59,400 nt of DNA from an uncultured Bacilli bacterium (GTDB lineage Bacteria > Bacillota_I > Bacilli_A > RF39 > UBA660): positions 1 through 59,400 of the forward strand of contig CALVIS010000001.1 in NCBI GenBank assembly GCA_944331805.1, given 5' to 3'. Positions 226 through 26,047 of the stretch are shown one piece after another. Below the pieces are notes generated by a model. It worked only from the letters and a program-made list of their open reading frames with translations. It searched no databases and was not told where the DNA came from. Position numbers and translations under genes: made by a program. Position 1 is the stretch's first letter, and every line of letters begins with the position of its first letter.

Positions 226-984
226 ATGAAATGTAATTTCATTCCTTTTTTAGGACAAAATAGAGATTTAAGTATTAATTCTTATAATCAAGGTATGTCA
301 TATTATTTAAGAAATAAAGGTAATACTATTAATTATGATATGTTACCAACAAATCTTTCTCATGAATATTTAAGTATGTTAAGTAAAGATGTTTCTTTAA
401 GGGCTAAAGATGCTATAGTTTTTCGTTTTGTTATTGATAAAAATGGTAATATATGTTCTTCTTCAGTTAATAGAAATAAAGTTATAGTTGACTATAATTT
501 AACAAGTAATGATGCAATTAGAATATTAGATAAAGAGAAGGTTAGTAGTAAGGTTGATAAATCTATCTATTTATTAAGAGATTTATGTAAAATTATCTCA
601 GTATCTTCAACAAAACAGTATCTTTCTAATCTATCTAAAGTTACTATTGATGATATGATTGCTCTTCCTTCACTTTTAGTTAATTATTATCTTAGTGAAG
701 AGTTAGAGTTTGGTATATATAGTGAGAATGGAACATATACAAGTAAACCTGTTAGTGATATTTATATAACTGGTAGTGCCCCTTTAAGACGCTATGTTGA
801 TGATATAAATCTTGCTATACTTCTAGAACAAAAAGGATTACAGAGCTTTGCAAAAGACGATTTTAGATATTTAGAGAATAACATTGATGAGGTAATAGAA
901 CATTTAAACTGTCAAAACTTTCTTGATAAATATATTGAAAAGAATAATGCTTTAGTAAAAAAATACTATTTAAAACGGGGCTAG
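226..984 (+). CDS. hypothetical protein with a degenerate RNase II/R (RNB)-like motif
   Basis: 252-aa ORF. ITGSAPLRRYVDDINLAILL resembles the RNB signature TSPIRRYxDLxxHR. AKDAIVFRFVIDKNGN sits where RNB has its DxDDA acidic cluster, but the acidic residues are missing. By-eye motif match only. Confidence 0.3.
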   Translation: MKCNFIPFLGQNRDLSINSYNQGMSYYLRNKGNTINYDMLPTNLSHEYLSMLSKDVSLRAKDAIVFRFVIDKNGNICSSSVNRNKVIVDYNLTSNDAIRILDKEKVSSKVDKSIYLLRDLCKIISVSSTKQYLSNLSKVTIDDMIALPSLLVNYYLSEELEFGIYSENGTYTSKPVSDIYITGSAPLRRYVDDINLAILLEQKGLQSFAKDDFRYLENNIDEVIEHLNCQNFLDKYIEKNNALVKKYYLKRG

Positions 985-4597: not shown

Positions 4598-5434
4598 ATG
4601 AGAATAGTATATTGTGGTTATGATTTCTTCTATGGTTGTTTAGAAGAATTAGTTAAAGATAAGAATAATACTATTGTAAGGATATTTACTTTTGAAACTG
4701 ATAATAAATATAATTTTAATGATAAAATAAAATCCATTGCAAGTGAAAACAAAATACCTATTACTTATGATAAACCTACTGAAGAAGAATTATTTAGATT
4801 ATTTGATAAAGAAAAAGTTGATGTAATTATCACGGCAGGTTATATCTATAAAATACCTATTATAAATCATCCTAATTTTAAAGGAATAAATATTCATCCA
4901 ACACTTTTACCTAAAGGAAGAGGGCCTTGGCCTTTGCCTTGGATAATTTTAAAGAACGAAGAATATAGTGGGGTTACTATTCATAGATTAACTGATGATA
5001 TGGATAAAGGGCCAATTCTTTTACAAGAAAAGTTTAAGGTATTAGATAATGAAGATTTAGAGACCTTATCTTGTAGAAGCCAAGTGCTTGCTAAAAAACT
5101 TATAACTGAAGTAATAAGTAATTTTGATTATTATTATGATAATGCTAAAGAACAAGGAGAGGGAGAGTATTATCCTTATCCAACAGATGAAGATATGACA
5201 TTTAATGGTTTTATGAAAGTAGATGATATTGATAGAATAATAAGAGCTTTTGGTAAGTTTGATTCTTGTACTAGCTTTCTAGGTAAAAACTTTTTAGTAC
5301 ATGATGCAACTTGTTGGAAAGAAGAACATAAATATAAGCCAAATACGATTATACATATTACTAATAAAGAAGTGCTAATGGCGGTGCTTGATGGTTTTGT
5401 TTGTATTAGATATTATGAAGAAGATAAAGATTAA
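4598..5434 (+). CDS. formyltransferase-family protein (Fmt-like)
   Basis: GINIHPTLLPKGRGPWPLPWIILKNEEYSGVTIHRLTDDMDKGPIL matches the formyl-transferase N-domain (N/H/D catalytic positions, SLLPxxRG-type loop). There is no def neighbour, so probably not the primary fmt. Confidence 0.65.
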   Translation: MRIVYCGYDFFYGCLEELVKDKNNTIVRIFTFETDNKYNFNDKIKSIASENKIPITYDKPTEEELFRLFDKEKVDVIITAGYIYKIPIINHPNFKGINIHPTLLPKGRGPWPLPWIILKNEEYSGVTIHRLTDDMDKGPILLQEKFKVLDNEDLETLSCRSQVLAKKLITEVISNFDYYYDNAKEQGEGEYYPYPTDEDMTFNGFMKVDDIDRIIRAFGKFDSCTSFLGKNFLVHDATCWKEEHKYKPNTIIHITNKEVLMAVLDGFVCIRYYEEDKD

Positions 5435-5455
5435 GTAGTAAAGGAAGTGTTATGT

Positions 5456-6274
5456 ATGCCTGAAAAACCAGAAGTAATTACAGTAAGTAAAACATTAGAA
5501 CATATTATTATAGGTAAAACTATTAAGAAAGTGGATGTCTATTGGGATAATATAATTATTGGCGATATAGATAAGTTTAAGAAGGATTTAGTAGGTGAGA
5601 AAATTGAATCTATTACGACAAGAGGGAAATGGATAGTTATCTTTCTTACTACTAAAGCCTTAATATGTCATTTAAGGATGGAAGGAAAGTTCTTCTTTAG
5701 AGACCCTAGTGTTCCTAAAGCTAAACATGAACATGTTATTATTACTTTTACTGATAATACTGATATGAGGTTTAATGATGTTAGAAAGTTTGGTAAAATG
5801 GCATGTTTACCTAAAGATGAAGTTTATAATTTAAAGCCTCTTTCTGATTTAGGATTAGAGTATTATGATAATAGTTTAACACCTAGTTATTTATTAGAAG
5901 CTTTAAGAAAGAAAAAAGTGCCCGTTAAGACAGCTTTACTTGACCAATCAATTATTACTGGTATTGGTAATATCTATGATGATGAGATTTTATTTGCATC
6001 TCATATAAATCCTTTGAGGAAAGCAGATAGTGTTAGTTTAGATGAAGCGGATGCTATTATTAAAAATACGAAGAAGATATTGGATAAAGCTGTTACTATG
6101 GGAGGTACTACTATTAAGAGTTTTACATCAGCAGAAGGAGTACATGGCTTGTTTCAAAATGAACTTGCTGTTCATGGTAAAAAAGATGGAGTTTGTCCAA
6201 CCTGTGGTGAAAAACTTATTGTTACTAAAGTAGGAGGAAGAGGAACTTACTTTTGCCCTAACTGTCAAAAATAA
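5456..6274 (+). CDS. mutM: formamidopyrimidine-DNA glycosylase
   Basis: Starting at the ATG at 5456 gives MPEKPEV, with the required N-terminal Pro after Met. H2TH region present. C-terminal zinc finger CPTCGEKL...YFCPNCQK. The track start at 5447 is an upstream GTG. Confidence 0.9.
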   Translation: MPEKPEVITVSKTLEHIIIGKTIKKVDVYWDNIIIGDIDKFKKDLVGEKIESITTRGKWIVIFLTTKALICHLRMEGKFFFRDPSVPKAKHEHVIITFTDNTDMRFNDVRKFGKMACLPKDEVYNLKPLSDLGLEYYDNSLTPSYLLEALRKKKVPVKTALLDQSIITGIGNIYDDEILFASHINPLRKADSVSLDEADAIIKNTKKILDKAVTMGGTTIKSFTSAEGVHGLFQNELAVHGKKDGVCPTCGEKLIVTKVGGRGTYFCPNCQK

Positions 6275-6303
6275 AAGACTTATATTTATTTATAAGTCTT
6301 TTT
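6274..6303. terminator. bidirectional rho-independent terminator (mutM / 305-aa gene)
   Basis: 11-bp perfect stem AAAGACTTATA / TATAAGTCTTT with a 6-nt loop. T-runs follow on both strands. Confidence 0.7.
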
Positions 6304-7203
6304 AAATATTCTTTCTATTTCTTGTTCATTCTTTATATGGTCAAAATTAATTTTATCATCCGTAAATTGATTAACATAATCAAACATTGAATTAGCATCA
6401 TCAATAATATCATATCCATGTACTCCCATTTCTTCTGGACGACAAATTACAATATCTTTTTCAGATAGATTAATTACCTTCCTAATAGTATAATCATCAC
6501 AAGTAGTCCCATAACCATAAGCCCAATTACTAGTTATATCTGGAGTTTCTTCCATAAGTCTAAACACTAATCTTCTAAAAAAAGAAGGGTGACAAAGCGG
6601 AAAAAATAATTTTTGAATATTAAGCCTTTCACCACTTCTTTTTAAATTTAATTTAACATAGTGTATTTGACCTGAACTCTCAGACATAGTAAATATATTT
6701 AATCCTACGCTGAAATTCATATTTTCAAGAATTTCTACAATACTTAAAGTTATCGCCCCACGATTGAAAATCTGCTCTGTTGAGACTTCAGATAAATTTG
6801 CAGCGTTATAATATATATCAATATGTTCTCTTTTAGGATTTTCTCTATTAAACATTGAAAGAGGATTACCTTCTAGATAAGCTTTTACATTTGGAGCATA
6901 ACCAACATAATAATTATATTGTTTATTTTTTTTAGGGGACATTTTTAAATGTTTTTCTAACATAATTTTCAAGCTTAAGAGTTTATCAAAGTTTTCGTGG
7001 TATCCATATCTGCATAGATTTTCAGCTTCTTCAAAGGAATTTGTTTCAAAAAAATCATAGCCATTTTTTTCACTTTCTAAGGTGCTATTACCATATACTT
7101 CGTCATTGATTGGGGTATTATCTATATATTCAAGAAATTCTGTTATGGAATCAAAATTATATTCCATAATATTATAATCGTCTTTTTTATAATACTTATA
7201 CAT
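6286..7203 (-). CDS. uncharacterised 305-aa partner of the AAA+ ATPase (possible degenerate vWA-like fold)
   Basis: Starts 4 nt after the ATPase stop, and its RBS TAGGAGA lies in the last ATPase codons. HIDIYYNAANLSEVSTEQIFNRGAITLSIVEILENMNFSVGLNIF has a beta-alpha-beta pattern where a MIDAS motif would sit, but there is no intact DxSxS. Confidence 0.5.
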   Translation of the reverse strand: MYKYYKKDDYNIMEYNFDSITEFLEYIDNTPINDEVYGNSTLESEKNGYDFFETNSFEEAENLCRYGYHENFDKLLSLKIMLEKHLKMSPKKNKQYNYYVGYAPNVKAYLEGNPLSMFNRENPKREHIDIYYNAANLSEVSTEQIFNRGAITLSIVEILENMNFSVGLNIFTMSESSGQIHYVKLNLKRSGERLNIQKLFFPLCHPSFFRRLVFRLMEETPDITSNWAYGYGTTCDDYTIRKVINLSEKDIVICRPEEMGVHGYDIIDDANSMFDYVNQFTDDKINFDHIKNEQEIERIFKKTYK

Positions 7204-7207
7204 CTAT

Positions 7208-8920
7208 TTATCTCCTAAGTTTTAATTGTTTAATACCATCATAATATTTATTACTTTTATCTATATCATGCATATTACCAATAATTGTATTAACGTCGTC
7301 TTGGTTTAGATTTTTTACAACGTTTGAAGTTAAAATATCTTGAATAGGTATACCATTTATCTCTTTTTTGTAAACTTTTCCTATACCACGAGTTGAAACT
7401 ATATGGGGGATTTTAGATTGATAAACAGCATCTCTAAATGACCACATAAATTCTAATATTTGTTTATTTGGGTATAGAGCTTTTTCTAAATTTCTATCAT
7501 AATCAAAGAAAATATTATCAAATCTATCAAGAGTAGCGGCATCTAGGGCATTTCTTCCTACATATTCTAAGTCTGCCCCTTTTCCCCAAGTGTTAGCCGC
7601 CGCTATTATCCTAAAGTTTGGATTTCTATCTATCGTTTCATGAGGAAAGGCCATATAGCCATTAGCTAAGGCAGAATTAATTACAATCAATGATGAAGGA
7701 TCTGAATTATCTATTTCATCTAAGAAGAATATACCTCCATTTTTAAATGCCTTATAAAATTCAGTTTCTTGATAATTACCACCTGCATCAATGAAGCCCA
7801 TTAATTTAAATTCATTTGAGGCATTATTTGTATAATACATATGTAATCCCAAAGCTTCTGCTACTTGTGCTATTGCTACATTTTTACCACTTCCAGCAGG
7901 CCCAATTAACATAATGGGTTCATCAAGCTGTACTTGGCTTAAGATTTGATTAAACTTCTCATGATAAAATGAGGCTTTAGTTTGTCCAATAACAGTGTCA
8001 TTTAGTTTTATAATATTAATAGTTGGAACTTGTATTTTACTTCTATATTCTTCTAATTTTTTATTAAGTGTATCTTCTAGTTTATCGTCTATATTATATT
8101 TTTTGATTGTTTCTTTGATAGCTTTTAAAACATCTCTTTCAATTTCCTTGTTTGTTAATTCTTTTTTTTCATCATCTTTATTTTTAGAATAAGATTTCTC
8201 AGTTATAAATTCATCATTTGGGGTATCAGCGGTTTCATTAATTGGTTCTATAGTCGGTTCATCTGATATATAAGGTAGTGATTCATCTGCTTGGGTAGAC
8301 ATTTTTTCAATTTCTTCACCATCGAATGTATAAAACTTATTGTTTATCATATATGTATTTTCTTGCATTTCATAAATTTCACTGCAAAATTTGTTTAATA
8401 TATTTTTATCATTTGAAAATATCATTTCATGGTTTCTTTTCGTATATCCATAATATAAATGTGTATAGTCATTATTTGCTTTAGTTACTGCAGCGACTAA
8501 AGAATTTTCTTTATTATCCCAAATTACTAAACAAAAATCCATATAATCACTTAATATTTTAAATTCGCCTGTCCATAGTGTATAATACAATGTATCTATT
8601 AATACAGGATTATTTGAATAGTAACCTTTATTACAGTATTTTTCTAAAGTATGATGCTTTTTTGGATTTAATTCTACATTAAAGTATGCTCCTACATATA
8701 AATTATTGATACTATTACGACTTTTATATGGTTCTTGAAAATATGAACTTTTTTCATTTTCAGGTATGATTTTTATAAAGACTGATTTGTTAGCAACTTC
8801 TTTATTTACTAAATAATTTTCAGTACACTTTTGTTTTAGTTCATCTATTAACAAATCAGTATTTACATCTTCACCATGATAAGCAATAAAGGTTTGAATT
8901 TCCTTTTCATTATTAATCAT
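7208..8920 (-). CDS. CobS/MoxR-clade AAA+ (AAA_5-type) ATPase with an N-terminal amidotransferase-like domain
   Basis: Walker A GPAGSGKN, Walker B FFLDEID, sensor AAANTWGKG and YVGRNALDAATLDRFD (CobS/MoxR-like). Acidic/Lys-rich linker at roughly aa 210-300. N-domain contains DFCLVIWDNKENSLVAAVTKANNDYTHLYYGYTKRNHEMIFSNDKNIL. RBS GAGGAGG. Confidence 0.75.
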   Translation of the reverse strand: MINNEKEIQTFIAYHGEDVNTDLLIDELKQKCTENYLVNKEVANKSVFIKIIPENEKSSYFQEPYKSRNSINNLYVGAYFNVELNPKKHHTLEKYCNKGYYSNNPVLIDTLYYTLWTGEFKILSDYMDFCLVIWDNKENSLVAAVTKANNDYTHLYYGYTKRNHEMIFSNDKNILNKFCSEIYEMQENTYMINNKFYTFDGEEIEKMSTQADESLPYISDEPTIEPINETADTPNDEFITEKSYSKNKDDEKKELTNKEIERDVLKAIKETIKKYNIDDKLEDTLNKKLEEYRSKIQVPTINIIKLNDTVIGQTKASFYHEKFNQILSQVQLDEPIMLIGPAGSGKNVAIAQVAEALGLHMYYTNNASNEFKLMGFIDAGGNYQETEFYKAFKNGGIFFLDEIDNSDPSSLIVINSALANGYMAFPHETIDRNPNFRIIAAANTWGKGADLEYVGRNALDAATLDRFDNIFFDYDRNLEKALYPNKQILEFMWSFRDAVYQSKIPHIVSTRGIGKVYKKEINGIPIQDILTSNVVKNLNQDDVNTIIGNMHDIDKSNKYYDGIKQLKLRR

Positions 8921-9069
8921 TTTGTGCCTCCTCTTAAATATATTTTATATTAATATTTATAAAACGTTTTTTATTATAGGTTCTTCAAACAATAATGTCA
9001 ATATTACTTACTTAATAGAGTCTAAATTAATATTAGATTTTTAAAACTCTTTTAATTTTAATAAAACTA

Positions 9070-9078
9070 TGCTATAAT
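9070..9078 (+). promoter_or_regulatory. extended -10 (TGCTATAAT) upstream of pyk
   Basis: Perfect TGnTATAAT about 34 nt upstream of the pyk ATG. Confidence 0.45.
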
Positions 9079-9111
9079 TGTATAGCTTGATTAGAAGGAG
9101 TGAAGTAAATA

Positions 9112-10527
9112 ATGAAAAAGACAAAAATTGTTTGTAGTATAGGTCCTGCTAGTAATGAACCTGATGTTATGGAAAAAATGGTTAGAGCAGGAATGAATGT
9201 AGCAAGAATTAATTTTTCTCATGCAACTATAGAAGAAAGGGAGAAAGCTTGTGCATCAGTTCGTGAAGTAAGAAAAAGAACTGGTATGAATGTTGCTATT
9301 CTTTGGGATACTAAAGGTCCAGAATTTAGATGTGGAATTATGGAAAATGATTCTATTGAACTTGTTCCAGGTGAAACTATTGATATAGTTAAAGAACCTG
9401 TTACTGGTACTAAAGAGAGATTTTCTGTTAATCATCCAAGTGCAATTGACTCTCTTAATGTTGGAGATATTATCTTGTTAGAGAATGCTAAGATGAAACT
9501 TGAAGTTATTGCTAAATATGAAGATAGAGTTACTTGTAAAATTATTGATGGTGGAGTATTAGGAAACCGTAAGAGTATGAGTGTTCCAGGTATAAAACTA
9601 GATATTCCATATGTTAGTGATGTTGATAGAGAAGACATCATCTACGCATGTGAACATGGTGGAGAATTTCTTGCTATTTCCTTTGTATCTACTAAAGAAG
9701 ATGTTTTGGAAGTTAAAGAAATCTTAAAAGAACATGGTAGAGAAGACTTACAAATTATTTGTAAGATTGAGAGTGCTTTAGGTATTGAAAACTTAGAAGA
9801 TATCTTAAGTGTTAGTGATGGCGTTATGGTAGCTCGTGGTGACCTTGGTACTGAAGTACCTAGTGAAATGGTTCCAATCTATCAAAAACAAATGATTAAT
9901 ACTTGTAGAAGACTTGGAAAAATATCTATTGTTGCTACTGAAATGCTTGAGACAATGATGTCTAGTGATAATATTCGTCCAAAAAGAGCAGAAACTAGTG
10001 ATATTGCAAATGCTGTATTAGATGGTACTGATGCTGTTATGTTAAGTGGTGAAACTACTATTGGAAAGCATCCAGTTGAAACAGTTGCTGCTATGGCTAG
10101 TATTTGTGAGACTACTGAAAAATATGCAAGCTTTGATTATGCTTTTGATATTGAAAGCCTAGATAATATTACTAAGTCTATTGCATCTAACGTTGTACTT
10201 AGTACAGATGCTTTAGGTGCTAAATTAATCTGTGCTGCTACAATCAGTGGTAGAACTGCAAGAGTTATTAGTAACTTAAAACCAGATGCTCCAATACTTG
10301 CTTTATGTCCAGATGAAAAAACTGGTAGACGTTTAGCTCTAAATTGGGGAGTATATGCAGGAACACTTCCATACTTACCATCAACTGATGAAGTATTAAT
10401 TCAAAGTGTAGAGAAAGCTAAAGAGTTTATGGAACTTAATGAAGGAGACTTAATTGTAATTACTGGTGGTTTCCCTAATACAGAAACTAAGAGAATTACT
10501 AACTTAATGAAGATTGAAGAAATATAA
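9112..10527 (+). CDS. pyk: pyruvate kinase
   Basis: MKKTKIVCSIGPAS, NVARINFSH, MVARGDLGTEVP and the overall 471-aa architecture. Confidence 0.96.
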   Translation: MKKTKIVCSIGPASNEPDVMEKMVRAGMNVARINFSHATIEEREKACASVREVRKRTGMNVAILWDTKGPEFRCGIMENDSIELVPGETIDIVKEPVTGTKERFSVNHPSAIDSLNVGDIILLENAKMKLEVIAKYEDRVTCKIIDGGVLGNRKSMSVPGIKLDIPYVSDVDREDIIYACEHGGEFLAISFVSTKEDVLEVKEILKEHGREDLQIICKIESALGIENLEDILSVSDGVMVARGDLGTEVPSEMVPIYQKQMINTCRRLGKISIVATEMLETMMSSDNIRPKRAETSDIANAVLDGTDAVMLSGETTIGKHPVETVAAMASICETTEKYASFDYAFDIESLDNITKSIASNVVLSTDALGAKLICAATISGRTARVISNLKPDAPILALCPDEKTGRRLALNWGVYAGTLPYLPSTDEVLIQSVEKAKEFMELNEGDLIVITGGFPNTETKRITNLMKIEEI

Positions 10528-10593
10528 AAATAAGCAGGGATTATTCCTTGCTTTTGATATATAATTCTAATATAATTACGGTAGGTGAATGAT

Positions 10594-11850
10594 ATGAAAT
10601 ATATTGATTTAACACAAAAACGTGAAAATATAGTAAAGATTGCAAATTTAGATGATAGTAGTTTAAAATATATTGCTTCTATACGTACAAATGATGATTT
10701 TGAGGTTTCTAATAATCCTAATTGTATTTATCAATATACAACTAAACATAATCCTTTCTCTTTAGAAAAAATTATGTTTAATACTAATTTACATATTAAT
10801 TATGATTATTTGCAAGAAAACTATAAAGAACTAATGGATAAAGTTTGTGCTATTTTAAAAGAACATGTAGGTAATTATATATCTTTAGATAAAGAATTTA
10901 TAACAAAAGAGACTATGGAAGCTATAGCAACTAATCAAAATATTAATAAAGTTACTCTTGCTATAGATAGTAAAGATTTATTAGAAGTATTGGAGGTAAT
11001 TAAACATAGAAGTAAAGATATTCCTTTAAATACAATTGTTATAAATATTACTGAATATAATGATTTAAAAATATTTATTAATCATATTGTTTCTATATAT
11101 AAAGATGTAAAAATTATATTTAATATTGATTTTAAAAATTTTAATGCTGATGTATTAAGTGATTTAATAACATATAAAAATATTGTAGTAAAAGAAGAGA
11201 ATCATGAAATAGATTTAGATTTAGCAATAAAAAAAGAATTAAAAATAAGAGAATTGTTAGAGCCAGTAGAATCTATAAAAGATAAACTTTCTCCTTTTGA
11301 AATATATACTAAACTATATCAAATTGTTAAAGATTTTAAATCATATAAAGAAGTAGAAGAAGGAGATGATTTAGATAAATCTAGAACTCTTTCAAAGATA
11401 TTATTTAATGAATATATTGTATGTGAAGGATATGTTAATTTATTACAAGAATTATGTAAACGTTATAATATAGAAACATATTATATGTCAGTAGATGTTT
11501 TGCCTGATGATACAAAAGACTTAAATAATACAAATGACCATGCAAGATTACTTGTTAAAATGAAAGATGATAAGTATGGTATTGATGGACTTTATGTTAG
11601 TGACCCTACTTTGGATAGTATTCACTACAGTCTTTATAATCATATATTAATGACTTTTGATGAAGTTAAAAGAGAGTTAATCGGAGAGGTTACTTTTAAT
11701 GTGGATGATTTCTTAAATGTCAAAAATAAAGAAGAGTTTTATGCATTAGTAAATAATCCTGCCGCTAGATGGAAACTTTCATTCTTAGCACCTACAATTA
11801 GAAATTTTGATGAAGAGAGTTTTGAAAAAATATGTAGAACCTCTTCTTGA
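10594..11850 (+). CDS. transglutaminase-like (Cys-His-Asp) domain protein
   Basis: C-terminal VCEGYVNLLQELCKRYNIE ... DHARLLVKM ... LYVSDPTLD fits the transglutaminase-like cysteine protease core. The ATG at 10594 (RBS GGTAGGTG) is preferred over the GTG at 10585. Ends at the TGA at 11848-11850. Confidence 0.5.
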   Translation: MKYIDLTQKRENIVKIANLDDSSLKYIASIRTNDDFEVSNNPNCIYQYTTKHNPFSLEKIMFNTNLHINYDYLQENYKELMDKVCAILKEHVGNYISLDKEFITKETMEAIATNQNINKVTLAIDSKDLLEVLEVIKHRSKDIPLNTIVINITEYNDLKIFINHIVSIYKDVKIIFNIDFKNFNADVLSDLITYKNIVVKEENHEIDLDLAIKKELKIRELLEPVESIKDKLSPFEIYTKLYQIVKDFKSYKEVEEGDDLDKSRTLSKILFNEYIVCEGYVNLLQELCKRYNIETYYMSVDVLPDDTKDLNNTNDHARLLVKMKDDKYGIDGLYVSDPTLDSIHYSLYNHILMTFDEVKRELIGEVTFNVDDFLNVKNKEEFYALVNNPAARWKLSFLAPTIRNFDEESFEKICRTSS

Positions 11851-11892
11851 CATTATGATTATTGTTTAGAAGAAACTAGTTCTTTAGAAAAA

Positions 11893-12177
11893 ATGGCTGA
11901 TTATTGTGTTAATTTTCATCAAGAACCTATAAATGGCAATGATATACTTAAAGCACTAATAACAATTCATAAATTAGAAAATCCTAATATTGATGATAAT
12001 CAAATTATAGAATATTTTAAGTTAATCAAAGAGGTTTTAAAGAATATAGAAGATATTACTCATCCTACTATTGTTATAGAAAATAATAGAGAAAAAGTTT
12101 ATGATTTTTATGAAAATAAATATAGTGATAGTGATATCGAAGATATAGTTATAAATGAAAGAAAAAATACAAGGTAA
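11893..12177 (+). CDS. hypothetical 94-aa protein, in frame with the preceding gene
   Basis: Same reading frame as 10594..11850. Separated from it by one TGA plus 14 sense codons. Confidence 0.4.
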   Translation: MADYCVNFHQEPINGNDILKALITIHKLENPNIDDNQIIEYFKLIKEVLKNIEDITHPTIVIENNREKVYDFYENKYSDSDIEDIVINERKNTR

Positions 12178-12190
12178 TTTCCTCGTATTT

Positions 12191-12880
12191 TTATTTTATT
12201 TCTATTTTAGAATTATCAAAGTCTTTAACATCATCAAGTAAGGCTTCATGGATTTTTTCTTCTTTACTATCTAGATATACTTCTTCAATTCTATCAACAC
12301 GACAACGTTCTGCTTCTAAAATAGCATCTACCTTTTTAACGGCTTTATCTAAATCATCATTGACAACTACATAGTTATATTTAGGTATTTCATTTATTTC
12401 TTCATAAGCTCTTTTAAATCTTTTTTCTATTTTCTCTAAACTATCAGTATTTCTATTAATAAGACGTCTTTTTAATTCATTCATAGTAGGAGGCATTATG
12501 AAGATAAAGACAGTTTCATCTAGTTTTTCTTTAATCTTTAAAGCTCCTTGAATCTCTATTTCTAGTATTACATCTTCTCCTTTATCTAGATGTTCTTTAA
12601 TATACTTTTTAGGAGTACCATAGTAATTACCAGAGTATTCTGCATATTCTAAGAACTCATCATTCTTAATATCATTTTCAAACTCTTCTTTAGATAAGAA
12701 ATAATAGTTAATGCCATTTTTTTCTTCACCTCTAGGTTCTCTACTAGTGCAAGAAATAGATACCCAAGTATTCTTTCTTATTTTTAACAATTCATTAATT
12801 ATACTATTCTTACCACAGCCAGATGGTCCTGATATAACTATTAAAAGCCCTTGTTTCTTTGTTTTTACCATATTATCCAT
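12191..12880 (-). CDS. gmk: guanylate kinase
   Basis: GPSGCGKN P-loop, TSREPRGEEKNGINYYF and EIEIQGA motifs. RBS GGGAGG lies in the end of the upstream gene. Confidence 0.92.
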   Translation of the reverse strand: MDNMVKTKKQGLLIVISGPSGCGKNSIINELLKIRKNTWVSISCTSREPRGEEKNGINYYFLSKEEFENDIKNDEFLEYAEYSGNYYGTPKKYIKEHLDKGEDVILEIEIQGALKIKEKLDETVFIFIMPPTMNELKRRLINRNTDSLEKIEKRFKRAYEEINEIPKYNYVVVNDDLDKAVKKVDAILEAERCRVDRIEEVYLDSKEEKIHEALLDDVKDFDNSKIEIK

Positions 12881-12883
12881 AAC

Positions 12884-14050
12884 TTATTCCTCCCTTATAG
12901 GTTTCATCTTATATTCAGCTTCTATTAAGCTTTTAGACTTATCTTTATCAAAAACTAAAGAGTATATCTTTGTGATTTTGTATTCATATTCTAACATTTT
13001 ATCTTTTTCTCTTGTAAACTTACTAATAATAGGAATATCTATTTCTTTCTTTATCTTATTTAAATAATCTCTTCCTTTATTAGAAAAACCAAGTAGTCTA
13101 ATATATTTAATATCCTTAAACTCTTTCGCTTGCTCTTTAGTATAGTCACATAATATATAAATTAACATTCTAGATATCTTAGCATAAGTAGCATTTTTAC
13201 TCTTAACTTTATTAATTAACTCATCAAAACTATAACTATTAAGAATTTCTTTCTTTAGTTTAGTAGAAATACCACTATCTACTAAATTATAAATGGTTAA
13301 ATCATTAGAACTTATTATTTTATATTTTAAAAGATTAAAATAATCATCTAACTTAGGTATTTTCTTATTATTCAAATAGTTATAAGTAATAGGTGGAACA
13401 CTATTCTTTATATCTTTACCATCCAATAAAGCTTCTCTTATACTTGTTGCGCTGTTTATACTTTTTTTATCTAATTCTTTACTATGATAATCATTAGTTC
13501 TTTTTATAGTATGAGGAGTAATCTTATAATTATTAGAAAAAATCGCTTTTACATAACTAATACCTAGAATATCATTAGGTAGTTTAAAACAATCTCCTGT
13601 AATATCTTCTAAAGCTTTAGATAAAGAAGTAGGGTAGTTATAGCCCATTCTTAAATAAACTTGAACTAAACTATCAAAATCTTTATTAAAAAGTTGGGTC
13701 TCTACAAGTTTTTTAATTCCTTCGATATCATCAGATTCACTACCAAAGACTAAATCAGTAACTCCTAGATGATTTAATATATCAATAGAACCTTTTGCAA
13801 AGATATCTGCAGAAGCGCAAGAGAAAGGGAAGGGGAGTTCTACTACTAAATTAATACCATTTTTTATGGCAATAGAAGTCTTTTCCCATTTATCTAAAAT
13901 AGAAATATCTCCTCTTTGTGTGAAGTTACCAGCTAGTACTAAGATAATAGGACTATCAGGAAACATTTCTTTAACCTTTTCTATATGATATAAATGGCCA
14001 TTATGAAAAGGATTATATTCAGCGATAATACCAACTGTATGTTTAGACAA
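12884..14050 (-). CDS. tmcAL: tRNA(Met) cytidine acetate ligase (YlbM/UPF0348 nucleotidyltransferase)
   Basis: GIIAEYNPFHNGHLYHI HxGH-type motif near the N-terminus and about 390 aa in length. The TTG at 14050 is preferred because the GTG at 14059 abuts the RBS AAAGGGG. Confidence 0.8.
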   Translation of the reverse strand: MSKHTVGIIAEYNPFHNGHLYHIEKVKEMFPDSPIILVLAGNFTQRGDISILDKWEKTSIAIKNGINLVVELPFPFSCASADIFAKGSIDILNHLGVTDLVFGSESDDIEGIKKLVETQLFNKDFDSLVQVYLRMGYNYPTSLSKALEDITGDCFKLPNDILGISYVKAIFSNNYKITPHTIKRTNDYHSKELDKKSINSATSIREALLDGKDIKNSVPPITYNYLNNKKIPKLDDYFNLLKYKIISSNDLTIYNLVDSGISTKLKKEILNSYSFDELINKVKSKNATYAKISRMLIYILCDYTKEQAKEFKDIKYIRLLGFSNKGRDYLNKIKKEIDIPIISKFTREKDKMLEYEYKITKIYSLVFDKDKSKSLIEAEYKMKPIREE

Positions 14051-14167
14051 GATTAACACCCCTTTCTTAATTTGTTTATTAATTATAACACCATTTTATA
14101 GTTATATCAATTGTTTTTTTCAGTAATATGTGATATAATTTTAGAAAAAATTTATTGGAGGAATTAT

Positions 14168-15778
14168 ATGGTTAATGAGCAAAAAGAACTTTCATTTCAA
14201 AAACTTCAAAAGGAAATAAAGGATTTAATATTTCTTTCCCAAAGAAGGAATGTATTTACAGAAGTAAAAGATTTGGTGACTAGCAAAGTTAGCTTGTCAT
14301 TACAAGATGTAATTATTTTGTATCAGGCTTATTTAAAAGATCATTTTAAAGAATTTCATACTGCAAAAGAGGAGCTTGAAAGAAAGTTATCTAGTGACCT
14401 ATCTTATCCTGCTCGTCTGTCATTATCTTTAGTTCGAGATGAATGGCGACAAGATATAAAAACACCAAAAAATATGAAAAAATATTGGTATCGTAGAAAA
14501 TATAATGATTGTTGTAGGGAAACTGTTTCTATAAATTTATTTTTTAATCATCAAGAACAGCTTTTATTAGAAGAAGTATACTTTGATCATAAGCATGATT
14601 CATATTTAAAAAGTAAAAATATAGAAGAAGTTACTAATATTTATAAAAAATATAAAAATGATTATAAAAGAATAATGAATCTATATTATAAATCTATTTT
14701 TTCTATTTCTTTTGTTGGAAAAATTAATGCTAGTGAAACTGAAAAGTCTAAACTAGAAATTTATGTTCTTCCTTTTTATTGTTCGGAAAGAAAGGATGTT
14801 TCTGTTGATCCAGATATAACTGGAGAATGGACACATGATTTACACTATTATAGTGAGGAATTTCCTATTAATCTTTTTATAAAGAAAGTTGAGCTTTTTC
14901 GTTTAAAACCATGGAATCATTATGGTAATATCTTTATTAGTTTTGATTTAGATTATCATTTGCAGGATGCTTTTCTTTATGAAGGTTGGAATTTTTTTAC
15001 TAATGATATTTCGAAACTTATCACAAAAGATAGTGATAGTAGACTTTATCCTGAAATAGAGTTTTTGATTTCTGAAGCGTTTCCTAATTTTAAAATATAT
15101 TTAAAAGATTTACCTATTTTTTTCAGTGATTATTTAGAAAAATATGTTGGAACTGATTATTTAATTGAAGGAAAAAAACAATTTGATAAAGGAAAAGAAA
15201 AGGAAAGAATTAAAAACCTTCGAATTGTTGATAGGACAAAGCAATTGGTTGCACATAACAATATAAAGATTGTAAAACTGATAAAGAAAAATCAAAAGTT
15301 GTATGAAGAGCTTGGTGAGAGACAGTCAATTACAAAGGATATTTTATGTAAGATGATTAAAGATGAAGACAATGGTCACTGGGTAATACGTCCGGAGTTT
15401 AGAGATGATTTAGAATATTATGATTTAAGCGATATATCTTTTGATAATGTAGATGTTAGAGAAGTTGATTTTAGAAATACAAATATTAAAGCTCCGAATT
15501 TTGATCCGCAGATGGTTTATCAAAAGGATTTATCTGGCTGTTCTTTTGAATCTCCAATATACTCTACTAATGGAGTATTATTTGATTATTCTACTAATTT
15601 TACAGACGTTAATTTAGAAAGTACTACTATAAAACAAGAAGCACTTGTTTTATATAATAATAGTATTGCAAATGCAAGAATTAATCAACACACTATTTTA
15701 CCGGATGAATTATGGAAAATAAGAAATGAAGCATTGCGTCAAATAAAGACTAACATAAAAAATAATTATAAATTATAA
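14168..15778 (+). CDS. hypothetical protein with C-terminal pentapeptide-repeat-like region
   Basis: The ATG at 14168 follows the RBS TGGAGGA. The C-terminus (DISFDNVDVREVDFRNTNIKAPNF ... DLSGCSFES ... TNFTDVNLESTTI) has pentapeptide-repeat character. The rest is unrecognised. Confidence 0.45.
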   Translation: MVNEQKELSFQKLQKEIKDLIFLSQRRNVFTEVKDLVTSKVSLSLQDVIILYQAYLKDHFKEFHTAKEELERKLSSDLSYPARLSLSLVRDEWRQDIKTPKNMKKYWYRRKYNDCCRETVSINLFFNHQEQLLLEEVYFDHKHDSYLKSKNIEEVTNIYKKYKNDYKRIMNLYYKSIFSISFVGKINASETEKSKLEIYVLPFYCSERKDVSVDPDITGEWTHDLHYYSEEFPINLFIKKVELFRLKPWNHYGNIFISFDLDYHLQDAFLYEGWNFFTNDISKLITKDSDSRLYPEIEFLISEAFPNFKIYLKDLPIFFSDYLEKYVGTDYLIEGKKQFDKGKEKERIKNLRIVDRTKQLVAHNNIKIVKLIKKNQKLYEELGERQSITKDILCKMIKDEDNGHWVIRPEFRDDLEYYDLSDISFDNVDVREVDFRNTNIKAPNFDPQMVYQKDLSGCSFESPIYSTNGVLFDYSTNFTDVNLESTTIKQEALVLYNNSIANARINQHTILPDELWKIRNEALRQIKTNIKNNYKL

Positions 15779-22469: not shown

Positions 22470-24242
22470 ATGAATAAAAGCTTTAAAAAGATAATTAATT
22501 TAGAAGAAAATATCTCTATAGATGATTTAAAAGCAGCTTTAGAATACTTTATAACTATCAAAGATAATGATTTAAAAGAAGAATTTCTATTAAAATGTAA
22601 AAAAGTTATTATATCTTTTCTTAATAAATTATTACCTATGGTAGATGAGTATCCTATTTCTATATCATATGACAAAACAGTTTTTAAAATAGATAGGCTT
22701 CTATATTGGGCTAATTTTTTATATGGTAATAAAATTTTTCCTATATTTACTAAAGATATACAAAATATAAATGATAACTCTCTTTATTTAGCCTCTTTAG
22801 ATAGATACCGTAATAATGTCAATATAGATTTATTTGATGATAAAGAATTACTGTTAGATTTAGATATGTATAGTAAATCAATTGAATTAGAATCTAAATA
22901 TAGTGATATTAATAAAGATGTATTAGAGGAAGCTTATTACTTATATTTTAGTCTTAATAATTTTTTAGATAAAAAAGATTATGAAGAAAGAAAAAGAAAA
23001 TTTATGGATAAAAATAATATTTATCCAGGTACATTAAAAGATTATGTTGAAACATATGGAATGCTATATTTAAATATTCCCTTAAAAAAGATAGATAAGA
23101 TGATAAACTTTGTTGAAAGTGCTACTAGTCATTTTTCTAATGATTTCTTTAAATTTGAAGAAGTTTTAAACAATATCATAAATAGTAATGATATTAACTA
23201 TATAAAAGAAATTGTATTTACTAATCATCTTTCTCCATATGTAATAAAAAGTTTTATTGAAAAATATAGATTTTATAATAGAAAGTATTCTAATAATTTA
23301 GATAATATAATAAAGAAAATAAACGCTTCTATAATATCATTAGAAAAAGAACATAAATATATTCATTATTCTATCGCTTTAACTAAAATAGAAAGTAGTA
23401 ATGATTTAGAAGAAATTAAAATTATAGTAAAAAACAATATAACATATTTAACAAAAGATAATGTGGAGAGATTTATTACAATTTATAGAGTTACTTTATC
23501 TGATAAAAAGAAACAAGAATTAGAAGAAGAATTACTCAAAAAAACTGAAATAGCAAAAGAGGACATAAAAAAAGACAATGCTGCTGATAGAGCATTAGGA
23601 ATAGAAAGAAGAAAAGAAAATTTATATAATAGTATTGATTTCAATATATTTTTAAGCTCTGATATTAAGAGTAAGGATGATTTTTGTAAACTAATGGATA
23701 TCAGAGAAAGTGATTTTAATACTTTATTTTCAATGTTAGAAGTTAGAGATAATGAACTATACTTAAAAATTAAAGGAAAAATAAGAAATCTACAAGGCCA
23801 AAGATATGCAGTATTAATTAACAAAGTAAATTCTATTGCCGATAACATTATTAATGGAATAGAACTAGAAGATGGTAGTAGAAGAAATTTTGAAATACTT
23901 GATTATTTTCTTAGTACTAAATTAGACTTTAATGAATTTATAGACTTATATAATAAAAGCAGAAATATAGATATAGAATCACTAAAAGCAATTAAGATCT
24001 TCTTTGCTAAAAATAAACTAACTAATAAACTAAATATCAATCAAGAACTTGATGGAAGAACTATATTTATGGTAGATGATAAACCATATGAAGTAAGTAA
24101 AGAGGAAAAACAAACAGTTCTTAACTATCTAGGAGTTAAAGATATACCTCTTTATACAAAAGTATATAAACAAGCTTTAAAAAGACATATAAATGGTAAT
24201 TTAATATTAGAAGATGATAAAAAACTAATTAAGAAAGGATAA
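22470..24242 (+). CDS. large helical Lys/Asn-rich protein, family copy 1
   Basis: 590 aa. Paralogue of 24248..26047 along its whole length. HTH-like stretch FCKLMDIRESDFNTLFSML. Conserved tail IPLYTKVYKQALKRHINGNLILEDDKKLIKKG. Confidence 0.6.
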   Translation: MNKSFKKIINLEENISIDDLKAALEYFITIKDNDLKEEFLLKCKKVIISFLNKLLPMVDEYPISISYDKTVFKIDRLLYWANFLYGNKIFPIFTKDIQNINDNSLYLASLDRYRNNVNIDLFDDKELLLDLDMYSKSIELESKYSDINKDVLEEAYYLYFSLNNFLDKKDYEERKRKFMDKNNIYPGTLKDYVETYGMLYLNIPLKKIDKMINFVESATSHFSNDFFKFEEVLNNIINSNDINYIKEIVFTNHLSPYVIKSFIEKYRFYNRKYSNNLDNIIKKINASIISLEKEHKYIHYSIALTKIESSNDLEEIKIIVKNNITYLTKDNVERFITIYRVTLSDKKKQELEEELLKKTEIAKEDIKKDNAADRALGIERRKENLYNSIDFNIFLSSDIKSKDDFCKLMDIRESDFNTLFSMLEVRDNELYLKIKGKIRNLQGQRYAVLINKVNSIADNIINGIELEDGSRRNFEILDYFLSTKLDFNEFIDLYNKSRNIDIESLKAIKIFFAKNKLTNKLNINQELDGRTIFMVDDKPYEVSKEEKQTVLNYLGVKDIPLYTKVYKQALKRHINGNLILEDDKKLIKKG

Positions 24243-24247
24243 TGCTT

Positions 24248-26047
24248 ATGAATAAAGATAGTTTCGATAAAATTATCAATAATGATAAAGAAGATATAAG
24301 TAGTAAAGATTTTACTAAAGCAATAGAATATTTTTTATCTGTTAAAGATAATAATAGTAAAAAACAGTTTTTAAATAATTTTAAGCCATTAATTAATTAT
24401 TATTTTACAAAAAGTTCTTTAGTTTTTGAAATTGATCATGATGTTTATACTATAAATAATAATATTGCTTATAAAATAGGACAGCTTTCTTTTTACATGT
24501 ATTCTTTATATGGAAAAACTAACCTTGAAAAAATAAAAAAAGAAGAAAATATTGATTATTATAAAGGGTATAAAACTTTTTTCGATAAGTATTACTTTAT
24601 ATCTAAACTCTTTCAAAATGAGGTTCCTTTAATTAAAAGACTAAAAACATATCGAAAAGAAAAAGATATATCAGAAAAATATCAGGATTTTAATATAGAT
24701 ATATTAAAAGAAGCATATTACACAGCCTTTACCATCGATAATTATTCTGATAAAGATAATTATTATAAGAGAATTGATTCATTCCTAGAAAAATATAATA
24801 TTAATATTGATACATTTAAAGAATATATTAGAGCATATGGCTTGCTATATCTAAACACAGACTTAAAACATATAGATAATAAAATTTTATCAATTGTTTT
24901 AGCACTTAAAAAGATTAATATTACTGGTTCAAAAGAGGTATTAGCTAAAGTACTTGAAAAAAACAAAGACTCTAATGATAATGAAAACTTTGAAAATATT
25001 GTATTTTCTAAACACATATCTTTAGATGTGCTTGATTATTTATATGAAAATAAGTACTTTGATACTGATACTTATAAGAATTTATATGTTAAAGTTAGTA
25101 AAGCTATTGAAAGTCTTAGTGAAAAATATAAATATATTCACTACTCTATCGTTATGAGTAAACTAGAAAAAGAAGAAGATCTTAATATAATAGATAACAT
25201 AGTAGAAAATAATAATAATTTGATACATCCTGAGTATATTAGAAAGTTTCTTAATAATTATAGACAAACTCTAACAGAAGAAGAAAAAGAAAATTTAAAA
25301 GAACAAATAACTACTAAAATAGATGAGGCAAGAAAAAGAATTAACTATAAAAAAATGATAAAGAGAAGACAAAGTGATGTAGAAAATACTAAAGAAATAT
25401 TAAAGAATATTGATTTTACCCTATTTCTTGATAATAGTATTCGAAGCATTAAACAATTTTGCCAACTAGTAGGTATCACGGAGAGAACATATTATAAATG
25501 CATAAAAATTCTTGAAGAAGTTAATAATCCATTATATTTACAAATAAAAGAAAAAATAGAAAAACATAATAAGAAAAATAAAGAAATTAACAAATCGACT
25601 GAAAATATAATATCTATTGTTAAGCAAATAGAATGTGGAGTTATAGATAAAGATTGTAATATAAGACCGTTTGAATTATTAGATTATTTTCTTAATACTA
25701 AATTAAATTATAGTGAGTTTTTTGATATTTACATAAATAGTAATGATTGTAGTAAATCTTCTTTAACTGCTTTTAAAAATTTTATGGTTAACAATAAAAT
25801 ATCATATGTAATAGCCGATAATAAAATGGATAAAATAACTGTTGATCAAGAGCTTAATGGTACTACTATATTAATGATAGATAATGAGCCTTATGAAGTA
25901 ACAAGAGAAGAAAAAGAAGAAGTTATTAACTTCCTTCAAGAAAAAGAGATACCTCTTTATATAAAAGTATATAAACAAGCCCTAAGAAGACATATAAGTG
26001 GTAAATTAATATTGGAAGATGATAAAAAAATGATTAAGAAAGGATGA
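24248..26047 (+). CDS. large helical Lys/Asn-rich protein, family copy 2
   Basis: The ATG at 24248 aligns MNKDSFDKIIN with MNKSFKKIIN of copy 1, and the RBS AAAGGA lies in the upstream gene's end. HTH-like FCQLVGITERTYYKCIKIL. Same C-terminal tail. Confidence 0.6.
   Translation: MNKDSFDKIINNDKEDISSKDFTKAIEYFLSVKDNNSKKQFLNNFKPLINYYFTKSSLVFEIDHDVYTINNNIAYKIGQLSFYMYSLYGKTNLEKIKKEENIDYYKGYKTFFDKYYFISKLFQNEVPLIKRLKTYRKEKDISEKYQDFNIDILKEAYYTAFTIDNYSDKDNYYKRIDSFLEKYNINIDTFKEYIRAYGLLYLNTDLKHIDNKILSIVLALKKINITGSKEVLAKVLEKNKDSNDNENFENIVFSKHISLDVLDYLYENKYFDTDTYKNLYVKVSKAIESLSEKYKYIHYSIVMSKLEKEEDLNIIDNIVENNNNLIHPEYIRKFLNNYRQTLTEEEKENLKEQITTKIDEARKRINYKKMIKRRQSDVENTKEILKNIDFTLFLDNSIRSIKQFCQLVGITERTYYKCIKILEEVNNPLYLQIKEKIEKHNKKNKEINKSTENIISIVKQIECGVIDKDCNIRPFELLDYFLNTKLNYSEFFDIYINSNDCSKSSLTAFKNFMVNNKISYVIADNKMDKITVDQELNGTTILMIDNEPYEVTREEKEEVINFLQEKEIPLYIKVYKQALRRHISGKLILEDDKKMIKKG

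Follow-up and report, generated by a model that had tools for sequence, protein, structure and literature searches.

Several described systems join an ATPase motor of the AAA_5 family to a partner protein encoded alongside it, among them the MoxR-vWA chaperones NorQ-NorD, CbbQ-CbbO, RavA-ViaA and CobS-CobT. In CobST, the helix-2-insert and post-sensor-1 hairpins of the motor encircle the CobT shaft (bioRxiv 10.64898/2026.07.21.739949), and in NorQD a finger of the NorD vWA domain enters the NorQ pore, with ATP hydrolysis twisting the linker and thereby remodelling the client (PMC13036017). The cobST cluster is also spread among viruses, namely tailed phages and archaeal viruses (PMC8651126). 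Viral CobT is a protein of 600-700 aa with an M48C-like N-terminal domain and a C-terminal vWA domain bearing the MIDAS motif (for metal-ion-dependent adhesion site). Here we analyze a cassette of two minus-strand genes, coding for a 570-aa ATPase and a 305-aa partner, that lies between mutM (fpg) and pyk in 59,400 nt of DNA from an uncultured Bacilli bacterium (assembly GCA_944331805.1, contig CALVIS010000001.1, positions 1 to 59,400; the whole stretch is hereafter the window). We consider it about an even bet (probability roughly 0.5) that the cassette, a self-contained operon with constitutive expression, codes for an AAA+ remodelling machine of two components, in which a loop of the partner, a DUF7192 protein, would plug the ring of the ATPase. 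It is not a cobaltochelatase.

The pair resembles the viral cobST clusters in being two adjacent genes found in non-structural regions of tailed phages, and in its ATPase, as a cyanophage CobS was matched at 30% identity and both belong to PHROG 249. The partners are different, however, as a DUF7192 protein of ~290 aa stands in the place of CobT, and the bacterial form of the pair adds a pseudo-amidotransferase domain. With the MoxR-vWA chaperones the pair shares the AAA_5 motor and the partner encoded beside it, and a conserved protruding segment of DUF7192 could enter the pore as the NorD finger and the CobT shaft do. Nevertheless, DUF7192 has no MIDAS motif and no conserved D129, and no client enzyme gene is found near the ATPase and DUF7192 pair. 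The N-terminal domain of the ATPase shares the N-terminal nucleophile (Ntn) sandwich with inactive class II amidotransferases, such as the N-domain of beta-lactam synthetase and plant DUF3700, and like them is without the N-terminal catalytic cysteine, but in this protein an acidic linker joins the domain to an AAA_5 motor, a fused architecture of which we found no description. We describe the pair as a CobS/MoxR-class motor with a putative non-vWA adaptor and a novel N-terminal fusion.

By its motifs and profile matches, the ATPase is a motor of the CobS/MoxR (AAA_5) class, as the earlier note on this DNA had recognized. The Pfam AAA_5 match covers residues 336-467 (E 2.9e-13, 50.4 bits against a cut-off of 22), while the best family is PHROG 249, which holds phage 'CobS-like / porphyrin biosynthesis' ATPases (E 1e-56). 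Moreover, a profile of 55 ATPase homologues matched the midasin AAA domain (1e-26), CobS (1e-4) and CbbQ (2e-3) in the PDB. The Walker A motif GPAGSGKN (7880-7903) and the Walker B motif FFLDEID (7709-7729), both on the minus strand, are present together with AAANTWGKG and YVGRNALDAATLDRFD, all of them listed in the earlier note. Taken together, these signature motifs are almost entirely invariant in the 55 homologues, with Walker A, Walker B, AAANT (sensor 1) and the R456/R466 arginine region invariant throughout, and column identity reaches ~0.9-1.0 over most of the AAA+ module. The ATPase is presumably catalytically competent.

We then turned to the partner, which the earlier note had called unrecognizable, a description that the profile searches overturn. 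It matches Pfam DUF7192 (PF23822) at E 9e-33 (114 bits against a cut-off of 27), with residues 6-253 aligned to positions 5-256 of the 281 in the model, and PHROG 1909 at E 1.3e-38; on these scores it is a full member of both families. DUF7192 comprises 4,758 clusters at E<=1e-3 in a search of 1.84 billion representatives (clusters at 50% identity), and among the best 150 clusters nearly all are stand-alone proteins of 260-320 aa. No function has been described for the family, and our literature search found no paper mentioning it. The AlphaFold2 (AF2) model of the partner, with a predicted local distance difference test score (pLDDT) of 76, consists of a beta-hairpin at the N-terminus, a part made up of helices, a loop of low confidence (residues 88-123) and an alpha/beta core. 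When compared with BFVD by Foldseek, the model found phage DUF7192 proteins as its top matches (E 1e-11 to 1e-6, template modelling (TM) scores of 0.4-0.64), and the matches ranking after them include phage CobT-like and vWA proteins at E ~0.1. Against the PDB there was no significant match; the top one was the NorD vWA domain bound to NorQ (9qh6_G, E 0.078, TM 0.19), below which came the vWA domains of TRAP, collagen VI and C2a, mixed with Ras and phosphoribosyltransferase folds.

Regarding a MIDAS site, the earlier note had found no intact DxSxS in the partner, and our results agree with it: the motif is absent from the sequence, and D129 of the 'HIDIYYN' strand is variable across DUF7192 in a diverse alignment of the family (A3), so that the partner has no such site. 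A Pfam scan of 21 diverse DUF7192 members up to E 10 returned no vWA model, and a PDB profile search with the close-family alignment (A1) returned nothing. A relationship to CobT was also considered and rejected, because the alignment of DUF7192 with one cyanophage CobT-like protein by hhalign reached a probability of 0.3%, which argues against any relation to that protein. In the diverse alignment, the family-wide invariant positions are G112, K188, R210 and F214 and no others, and none of the conserved residues is an acidic residue of catalytic type. The same alignment gave a PDB match to the MICOS subunit MIC60 (9qwr_A, E 3e-5), which was judged compositional (a helical, lysine-rich stretch) and set aside. 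We note that this match covers partner residues ~30-126 (6826-7116) and includes a VAGAKPHITAAEGKLHNM stretch aligned to the conserved loop.

The two genes make up a single functional unit and are found together in one genome after another, in line with the two-gene cassette of the earlier note. The bacterial scan, with one genome per species, produced 58 loci, of which four start at a contig end and miss the upstream region; with eight loci from other routes added, the bacterial loci containing the upstream region number 58. In 55 of these 58 loci the ATPase adjoins DUF7192, in either gene order. The hosts are mostly uncultured gut 'Bacilli' / 'Tenericutes' metagenome-assembled genomes, but also Clostridia and Eggerthellaceae, including Gordonibacter. 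No third gene is common to the loci beyond one subclade, the next-commonest neighbour being present in eight loci. In IMG/VR the ATPase is adjacent in all seven DUF7192 loci, where the DUF7192 proteins are merely 23-35% identical to the window partner. For each of the two proteins, the phage collection gave matches in 236 Staphylococcus phage records, and the ATPase was found in 70 Listeria and 80 Mycobacterium phage records, and further in Acinetobacter, Gordonia, Rhizobium, Clostridium and cyanophage records. In each of the five phages tested (Staphylococcus V1SA15, Listeria LP-048, Mycobacterium Halena, Acinetobacter Herod and Enterococcus vB_CECAV_04), the protein encoded next to the ATPase is DUF7192. 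The groups carrying the pair include the Staphylococcus Kayvirus, the Listeria Pecentumvirus and mycobacteriophages, and the ATPase with DUF7192 is a recurrent phage module. In the cyanophage S-RIM44, by contrast, the ATPase adjoins a 711-aa protein that carries the annotation 'peptidase', which is how cyanophage cobT is usually misannotated (PMC8651126). A plasmid search found no copy. A paper on the Kayvirus transcriptome contains no mention of the ATPase, and phage K gp102 is an unrelated helix-turn-helix protein.

Some loci depart from the two-gene arrangement. In L020 (10355-13702), a second, divergent pair coding for a 765-aa ATPase and a 349-aa DUF7192 protein lies ~1.5 kb downstream of the canonical pair, and in L057 (7093-8897) a single ATPase gene is followed by two tandem DUF7192 paralogues. 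On the metagenomic contig L066, twelve consecutive genes of ~180-280 aa without Pfam hits lie beside the pair (7922-14891, minus strand), and may represent a paralogous gene array. Furthermore, in L061, L063 and L064 (Clostridium sp. CAG:452 and relatives), a divergent 272-aa DUF7192 is found within a conserved block of 340-, ~655- and 188-aa genes, in which no ATPase of the same family could be recognized; these loci may hold a different partner arrangement.

The most conserved elements of the two proteins are found at matching places. In the ATPase, residues 362-381 and 444-455 are fully conserved at the expected positions of the pore hairpins, with low AF2 confidence in both, and the former is at the position of the helix-2 insert (pore hairpin), an assignment made because it falls between Walker A and Walker B. 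In the partner, the top-conserved window of the close family is residues 103-117 (APNVKAYLEGNPLSM, identity 0.97), which falls within the low-confidence segment 88-123. As a predicted flexible loop in one protein is matched by a segment at the pore-hairpin position in the other, we propose, by analogy with NorQD and CobST, a loop-in-pore contact between DUF7192 and the ATPase. According to this model, the 570-aa ATPase would form a ring, presumably hexameric, and DUF7192 would be its obligate partner, a non-MIDAS adaptor plugged into it. The flexible partner loop (residues ~95-117) would enter the pore and be gripped there by the helix-2-insert and post-sensor-1 hairpins, while the alpha/beta core of DUF7192 would hold a client protein that ATP hydrolysis may pull or twist. 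The pseudo-amidotransferase domain, on its flexible acidic tether, could serve as an extra client- or ligand-binding module, and the window pair would represent the chromosomal, mostly vertically inherited form of a module widespread in lytic phages. That the weak top PDB match of the partner should be a vWA domain bound to its own motor, NorD on NorQ, is consistent with the proposed contact.

Table 1. Positions in the window of the two genes, their protein regions and the predicted expression signals of the cassette.
Feature	Coordinates	Strand	Basis
ATPase gene, 570 aa: pseudo-amidotransferase N-domain, acidic linker and AAA_5 motor	7208..8920	-	Open reading frame, Pfam, PHROG and PDB profiles
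Putative N-terminal domain (residues 1-206), with the fold of class II glutamine amidotransferases / Ntn hydrolases and lacking a nucleophile	8303..8920	-	AF2 and Foldseek
Acidic, predicted disordered linker and helical segment, residues 207-300	8021..8302	-	AF2; acidity read from sequence
AAA+ motor module, residues 301-570	7211..8020	-	Motifs invariant in 55 homologues
Top-conserved 20-residue ATPase window, residues 362-381, YYTNNASNEFKLMGFIDAGG	7778..7837	-	Conservation 1.00 (alignment A2)
Sensor 1 / post-sensor-1 insert / arginine region, AANTWGKGADLEYVGRNALDAATLDRFD	7517..7600	-	Window 441-460 conservation 0.97; most positions invariant
Partner gene, 305 aa, Pfam DUF7192 (PF23822) / PHROG 1909	6286..7203	-	Profile matches
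Conserved partner loop, residues 95-117, ...QYNYYVGYAPNVKAYLEGNPLSM; proposed 'finger' into the ATPase ring	6853..6921	-	Conservation; role by analogy
Partner alpha/beta core, residues 124-280	6364..6834	-	AF2 and A3; K188, R210 and F214 conserved; E218 and Y231-G232 nearly invariant
Partner ribosome-binding site AGGAGA	7211..7216	-	Within the final ATPase codons; read from sequence
ATPase ribosome-binding site GAGGAGG	8927..8933	-	6 nt upstream of ATG; read from sequence
Predicted sigma-70 consensus promoter of the two-gene operon, TTGACA-17 nt-TATAAT	8973..9001	-	12/12 matches
12-bp perfect inverted repeat, hairpin common to the convergent fpg and partner genes	6273..6284 / 6291..6302	both	Repeat search and folding

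The layout of the cassette was throughout as the earlier note had drawn it, including the coupling of the two genes, the strong ribosome-binding site of the ATPase and the antiparallel placement between mutM and pyk (Table 1). The two coupled minus-strand genes are a real operon: the ATPase stop codon TAA (7210-7208) is followed by 4 nt (ATAG, 7204-7207) and then by the partner ATG at 7203. The AT-rich spacer towards pyk extends for 191 nt (8921-9111), and inside it lies the sole perfect sigma-70 site found across 6100-9300, a putative promoter that the earlier note did not contain. At the other end, the hairpin at 6273-6302 has a folding energy of -11.9 kcal/mol, reached by no shuffle (z of -4.6 on the plus and -4.0 on the minus strand), and is flanked by U-runs on both strands, so that it is likely a bidirectional terminator. 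A generic terminator scan did not report this hairpin, because the G-C pairs in its stem are too few. The flanking genes code for Fpg/MutM (5447-6274, plus strand) and pyruvate kinase (pyk, 9112-10527, plus strand), and LexA, PolA, a formyltransferase-like protein, a HIGH-nucleotidyltransferase family protein and Gmk are also encoded near the cassette. Its G+C content is no different from that of the surroundings. A repeat search around the cassette gave AT-rich chance matches only, with no target-site duplications and no terminal inverted repeats, and no integrase, att-like repeats or further phage genes were found near it in the window.

In the other bacteria, the genes flanking the pair are also housekeeping genes, which differ between clades (addAB with glmS, rpoC with an aminoacyl-tRNA synthetase gene, ddl, and murL with cdaA), as judged from a small sample of four clades and the window; among these Pfam-labelled flanks there were no defence islands. 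The fpg and pyk flanks of the window recur only in the two closest genomes, and an exact look-up of the window Fpg protein retrieved no record. Within syntenic subclades the pair diverges as its flanks do, as illustrated by the loci L011 and L015, between which identity is 83% for AddB, 85% for AddA, 84% for the ATPase, 80% for DUF7192 and 79% for GlmS. This indicates that, in such subclades, the pair has been vertically inherited under purifying selection. Housekeeping flanks, flank-like divergence, unchanged G+C content and a perfect consensus promoter altogether support a housekeeping-like behaviour of the cassette. In none of the neighbourhoods examined is the pair embedded among cobalamin, NO-reductase, Rubisco or gas-vesicle genes; the partner falls in no characterized family, and the two genes co-vary. 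A link to glmS and glutamine metabolism was also considered, and it was rejected because the adjacency of glmS is limited to one subclade of eight loci.

The N-terminal part of the ATPase was examined separately, as the earlier note had pointed to an unusual N-terminal domain and an acidic linker, both of which are borne out by the models. AF2 folds residues ~10-205 with pLDDT mostly of 85-93 (lower around 85-110), whereas residues 207-259 are acidic and predicted to be disordered (pLDDT <50), and helices are predicted at 248-293. By Foldseek, the N-domain matched AsnB (1ct9, E 1e-10), the glutaminase domain of GlmS (1xff, TM 0.55-0.59), beta-lactam synthetase and EgtC, and the weak DUF3700/GATase_7 matches in Pfam agree with this fold. 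No Cys, Ser or Thr is conserved before strand 1 (FIAYxG), where the preceding residue may be T, I, Y, W, F, S, K or others. As the catalytic N-terminal nucleophile is not conserved, the domain is most likely a class II amidotransferase-like pseudoenzyme, which probably acts as a binding or regulatory domain. The phage ATPases of the same family that were checked are 338-469 aa long and do not carry it. Among bacterial relatives the ATPase N-termini vary, with longer or different forms that include weak leucine-rich repeat (LRR)-like matches. In L042, the domain also occurs as a free-standing open reading frame (ORF) of 216 aa right after the pair (8958-9608), with 42% identity to residues 1-211 of the window ATPase. 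Searching with the N-domain by itself through a word index gave a single fragment, which was uninformative on its spread.

Several observations weigh against a housekeeping remodelling machine working through a loop in the pore. The putative loop-in-pore contact is drawn by analogy. AF2 performs poorly on the AAA+ part (pLDDT <50 for residues 401-474), the partner resembles vWA domains weakly (E 0.078, TM 0.19-0.26) and sequence profiles do not bear this out, and with so few family-wide invariants (K188, R210, F214 and G112) the partner may have an enzymatic role. In addition, DUF7192 occurs without an adjacent ATPase at L021, L061 and L063. Other points concern inheritance: the pairs of L009 and L013 are 88-89% identical within unrelated flanks, and have therefore moved between close relatives, while the spread of the pair over phyla (Bacilli, Clostridia and Eggerthellaceae), the variable ATPase N-termini and the tandem paralogues in L020 and L057 would all fit a mobile or conflict module.

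It is on these points of inheritance that an anti-phage defence or other conflict system, the proposal of the earlier note, would be built: the variable N-domain (pseudo-amidotransferase, weak LRR-like matches or longer forms) would let the ATPase detect or remodel a component of the invader, with DUF7192 as effector or adaptor, and the patchy spread, the homologues in phages, the transferred pair of L009 and L013 and the tandem copies would follow from it. Moreover, overcoming a predicted defence system required, in a transposon screen, a phage MoxR ATPase gene (bioRxiv 10.1101/2025.11.20.689424), whose homology to the present ATPase family is not shown; a tblastn search with the Acinetobacter phage DUF7192 found Acinetobacter phages only, and a link to this result, obtained for the E. 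coli phage Bas54, was not established. Nevertheless, the sole match in PADLOC-DB v2 was mad8 on the ATPase (E 0.017), which is sub-threshold, with no stretch passing alone, and the partner had no match at all, so that no credible defence assignment came from this database. Pfam scans of the two proteins brought up no effector domain, be it nuclease, protease, TIR or another, and no catalytic acidic residues are conserved. The neighbours, in four clades and the window, are housekeeping and not defence genes; the AAA+ module is close to invariant over most of its columns, and the pair diverges at the pace of its housekeeping flanks. The module is also carried by strictly lytic phage lineages, with matches in all 236 of the Staphylococcus phage records, and plasmid copies were not found. 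There is no positive evidence for a defence role, which we regard as unlikely and as a minority possibility, and we infer for the pair a function outside defence. A variant of the idea, in our judgement equally unlikely, would place the pair as a conflict module on both sides of the arms race: in phages it would be a counter-defence or host-takeover remodeller, and the gut Bacilli would have captured a copy which, with its added pseudo-amidotransferase sensor, would guard or monitor the same target. If that were true, the pair would be a new kind of machine for immunity or anti-immunity, driven by an AAA+ motor and equipped with a non-vWA adaptor, and in Kayvirus, Pecentumvirus and mycobacteriophages it would strip or disassemble a host complex.

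Somewhat less probable still is that the cassette is a domesticated or leftover phage gene pair (a moron), taken over from a phage and retained not for a cellular function but for one tied to phages, such as superinfection exclusion or host takeover. In favour of it, both families are PHROGs, the partner finds its best structural matches among phage proteins, and the cassette is compact, has its own putative promoter and terminator, and is squeezed in between housekeeping genes, one convergent and one divergent. However, its vicinity contains neither an integrase nor att-like repeats nor further phage genes, and the relatives in IMG/VR are distant (23-35% identity). In addition, the bacterial clade has a fused N-domain of its own, not found in the phage ATPases checked, and evolves at the rate of housekeeping genes.

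An McrBC-like restriction system, consisting of an AAA_5 NTPase with an N-terminal DNA-reader domain and a nuclease partner, appears very improbable. The order and sizes of the genes are the same (variable N-domain, AAA_5 core, then a partner of ~300 aa), and the weak Foldseek matches of the partner include proteins of the PD-(D/E)xK fold (E 0.2-0.8). Nevertheless, searches of Pfam, NCBIfam and PADLOC gave no McrB- or McrC-family match, a conserved D...(D/E)xK motif is absent from the partner, the motifs of the ATPase resemble those of CobS and come with a long post-sensor-1 insert, and the N-domain has, by its predicted structure, an amidotransferase fold and not that of a DNA reader. Least probable of all is that the ATPase is the CobS subunit of a cobaltochelatase or of 'porphyrin biosynthesis', an annotation that it carries in many phage records. 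This reading draws on the 'porphyrin biosynthesis' label of PHROG 249 and on weak CobS matches (TIGR01650, E 2.5e-4; PDB 9ujv, 1.3e-4), but CobS membership is effectively refuted by a TIGR01650 score of 20.3 bits against a cut-off of 558.55, by a partner that is DUF7192 and not CobT, with no vWA/MIDAS and no profile similarity to the one cyanophage CobT-like protein, and by the absence of cobN or cobalamin genes from any neighbourhood examined.

A few further observations were made elsewhere in the window. Directly downstream of pyk, the genes at 10585-11850 (421 aa) and 11893-12177 (94 aa), both on the plus strand, have no Pfam match at E<=0.001, and in the closest relative (L008) the 421-aa gene is found at the same place as two ORFs. 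Between polA and fpg, a gene at 4598-5434 (plus strand) codes for a 278-aa protein with Formyl_trans_N (E 1.9e-23), shorter than a normal methionyl-tRNA formyltransferase; the ORF at its position in L007 is merely 121 aa long and has no match to the window proteins. The adjoining plus-strand ORFs at 22470-24242 (590 aa) and 24242-26047 (601 aa) have similar N-termini (…INLEENISIDDLKAALEYFITIKDN… and …NNDKEDISSKDFTKAIEYFLSVKDN…), and look like tandem paralogues. Rfam (at the gathering threshold) and tRNA scans of the whole window returned no family and no tRNA gene.

Few 'auxiliary' genes of tailed phages are as widespread as those for CobS-like ATPases, which are routinely labelled 'porphyrin biosynthesis' without evidence. 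The present comparison shows that a large branch of these phage ATPases pairs with DUF7192 (~4,700 clusters at 50% identity), and not with CobT. The pair is carried by therapeutic Staphylococcus and Listeria phages, and is kept in gut Bacilli of small genome as what appears to be a strongly expressed operon; phage K genetics offers a tractable way into its ATP-driven function. The fusion to a dead glutamine amidotransferase suggests, as a hypothesis, that the machine is under metabolite- or client-dependent control. If the loop-in-pore model is true, the adaptor principle of the MoxR/CobS motors would reach beyond vWA/MIDAS proteins.

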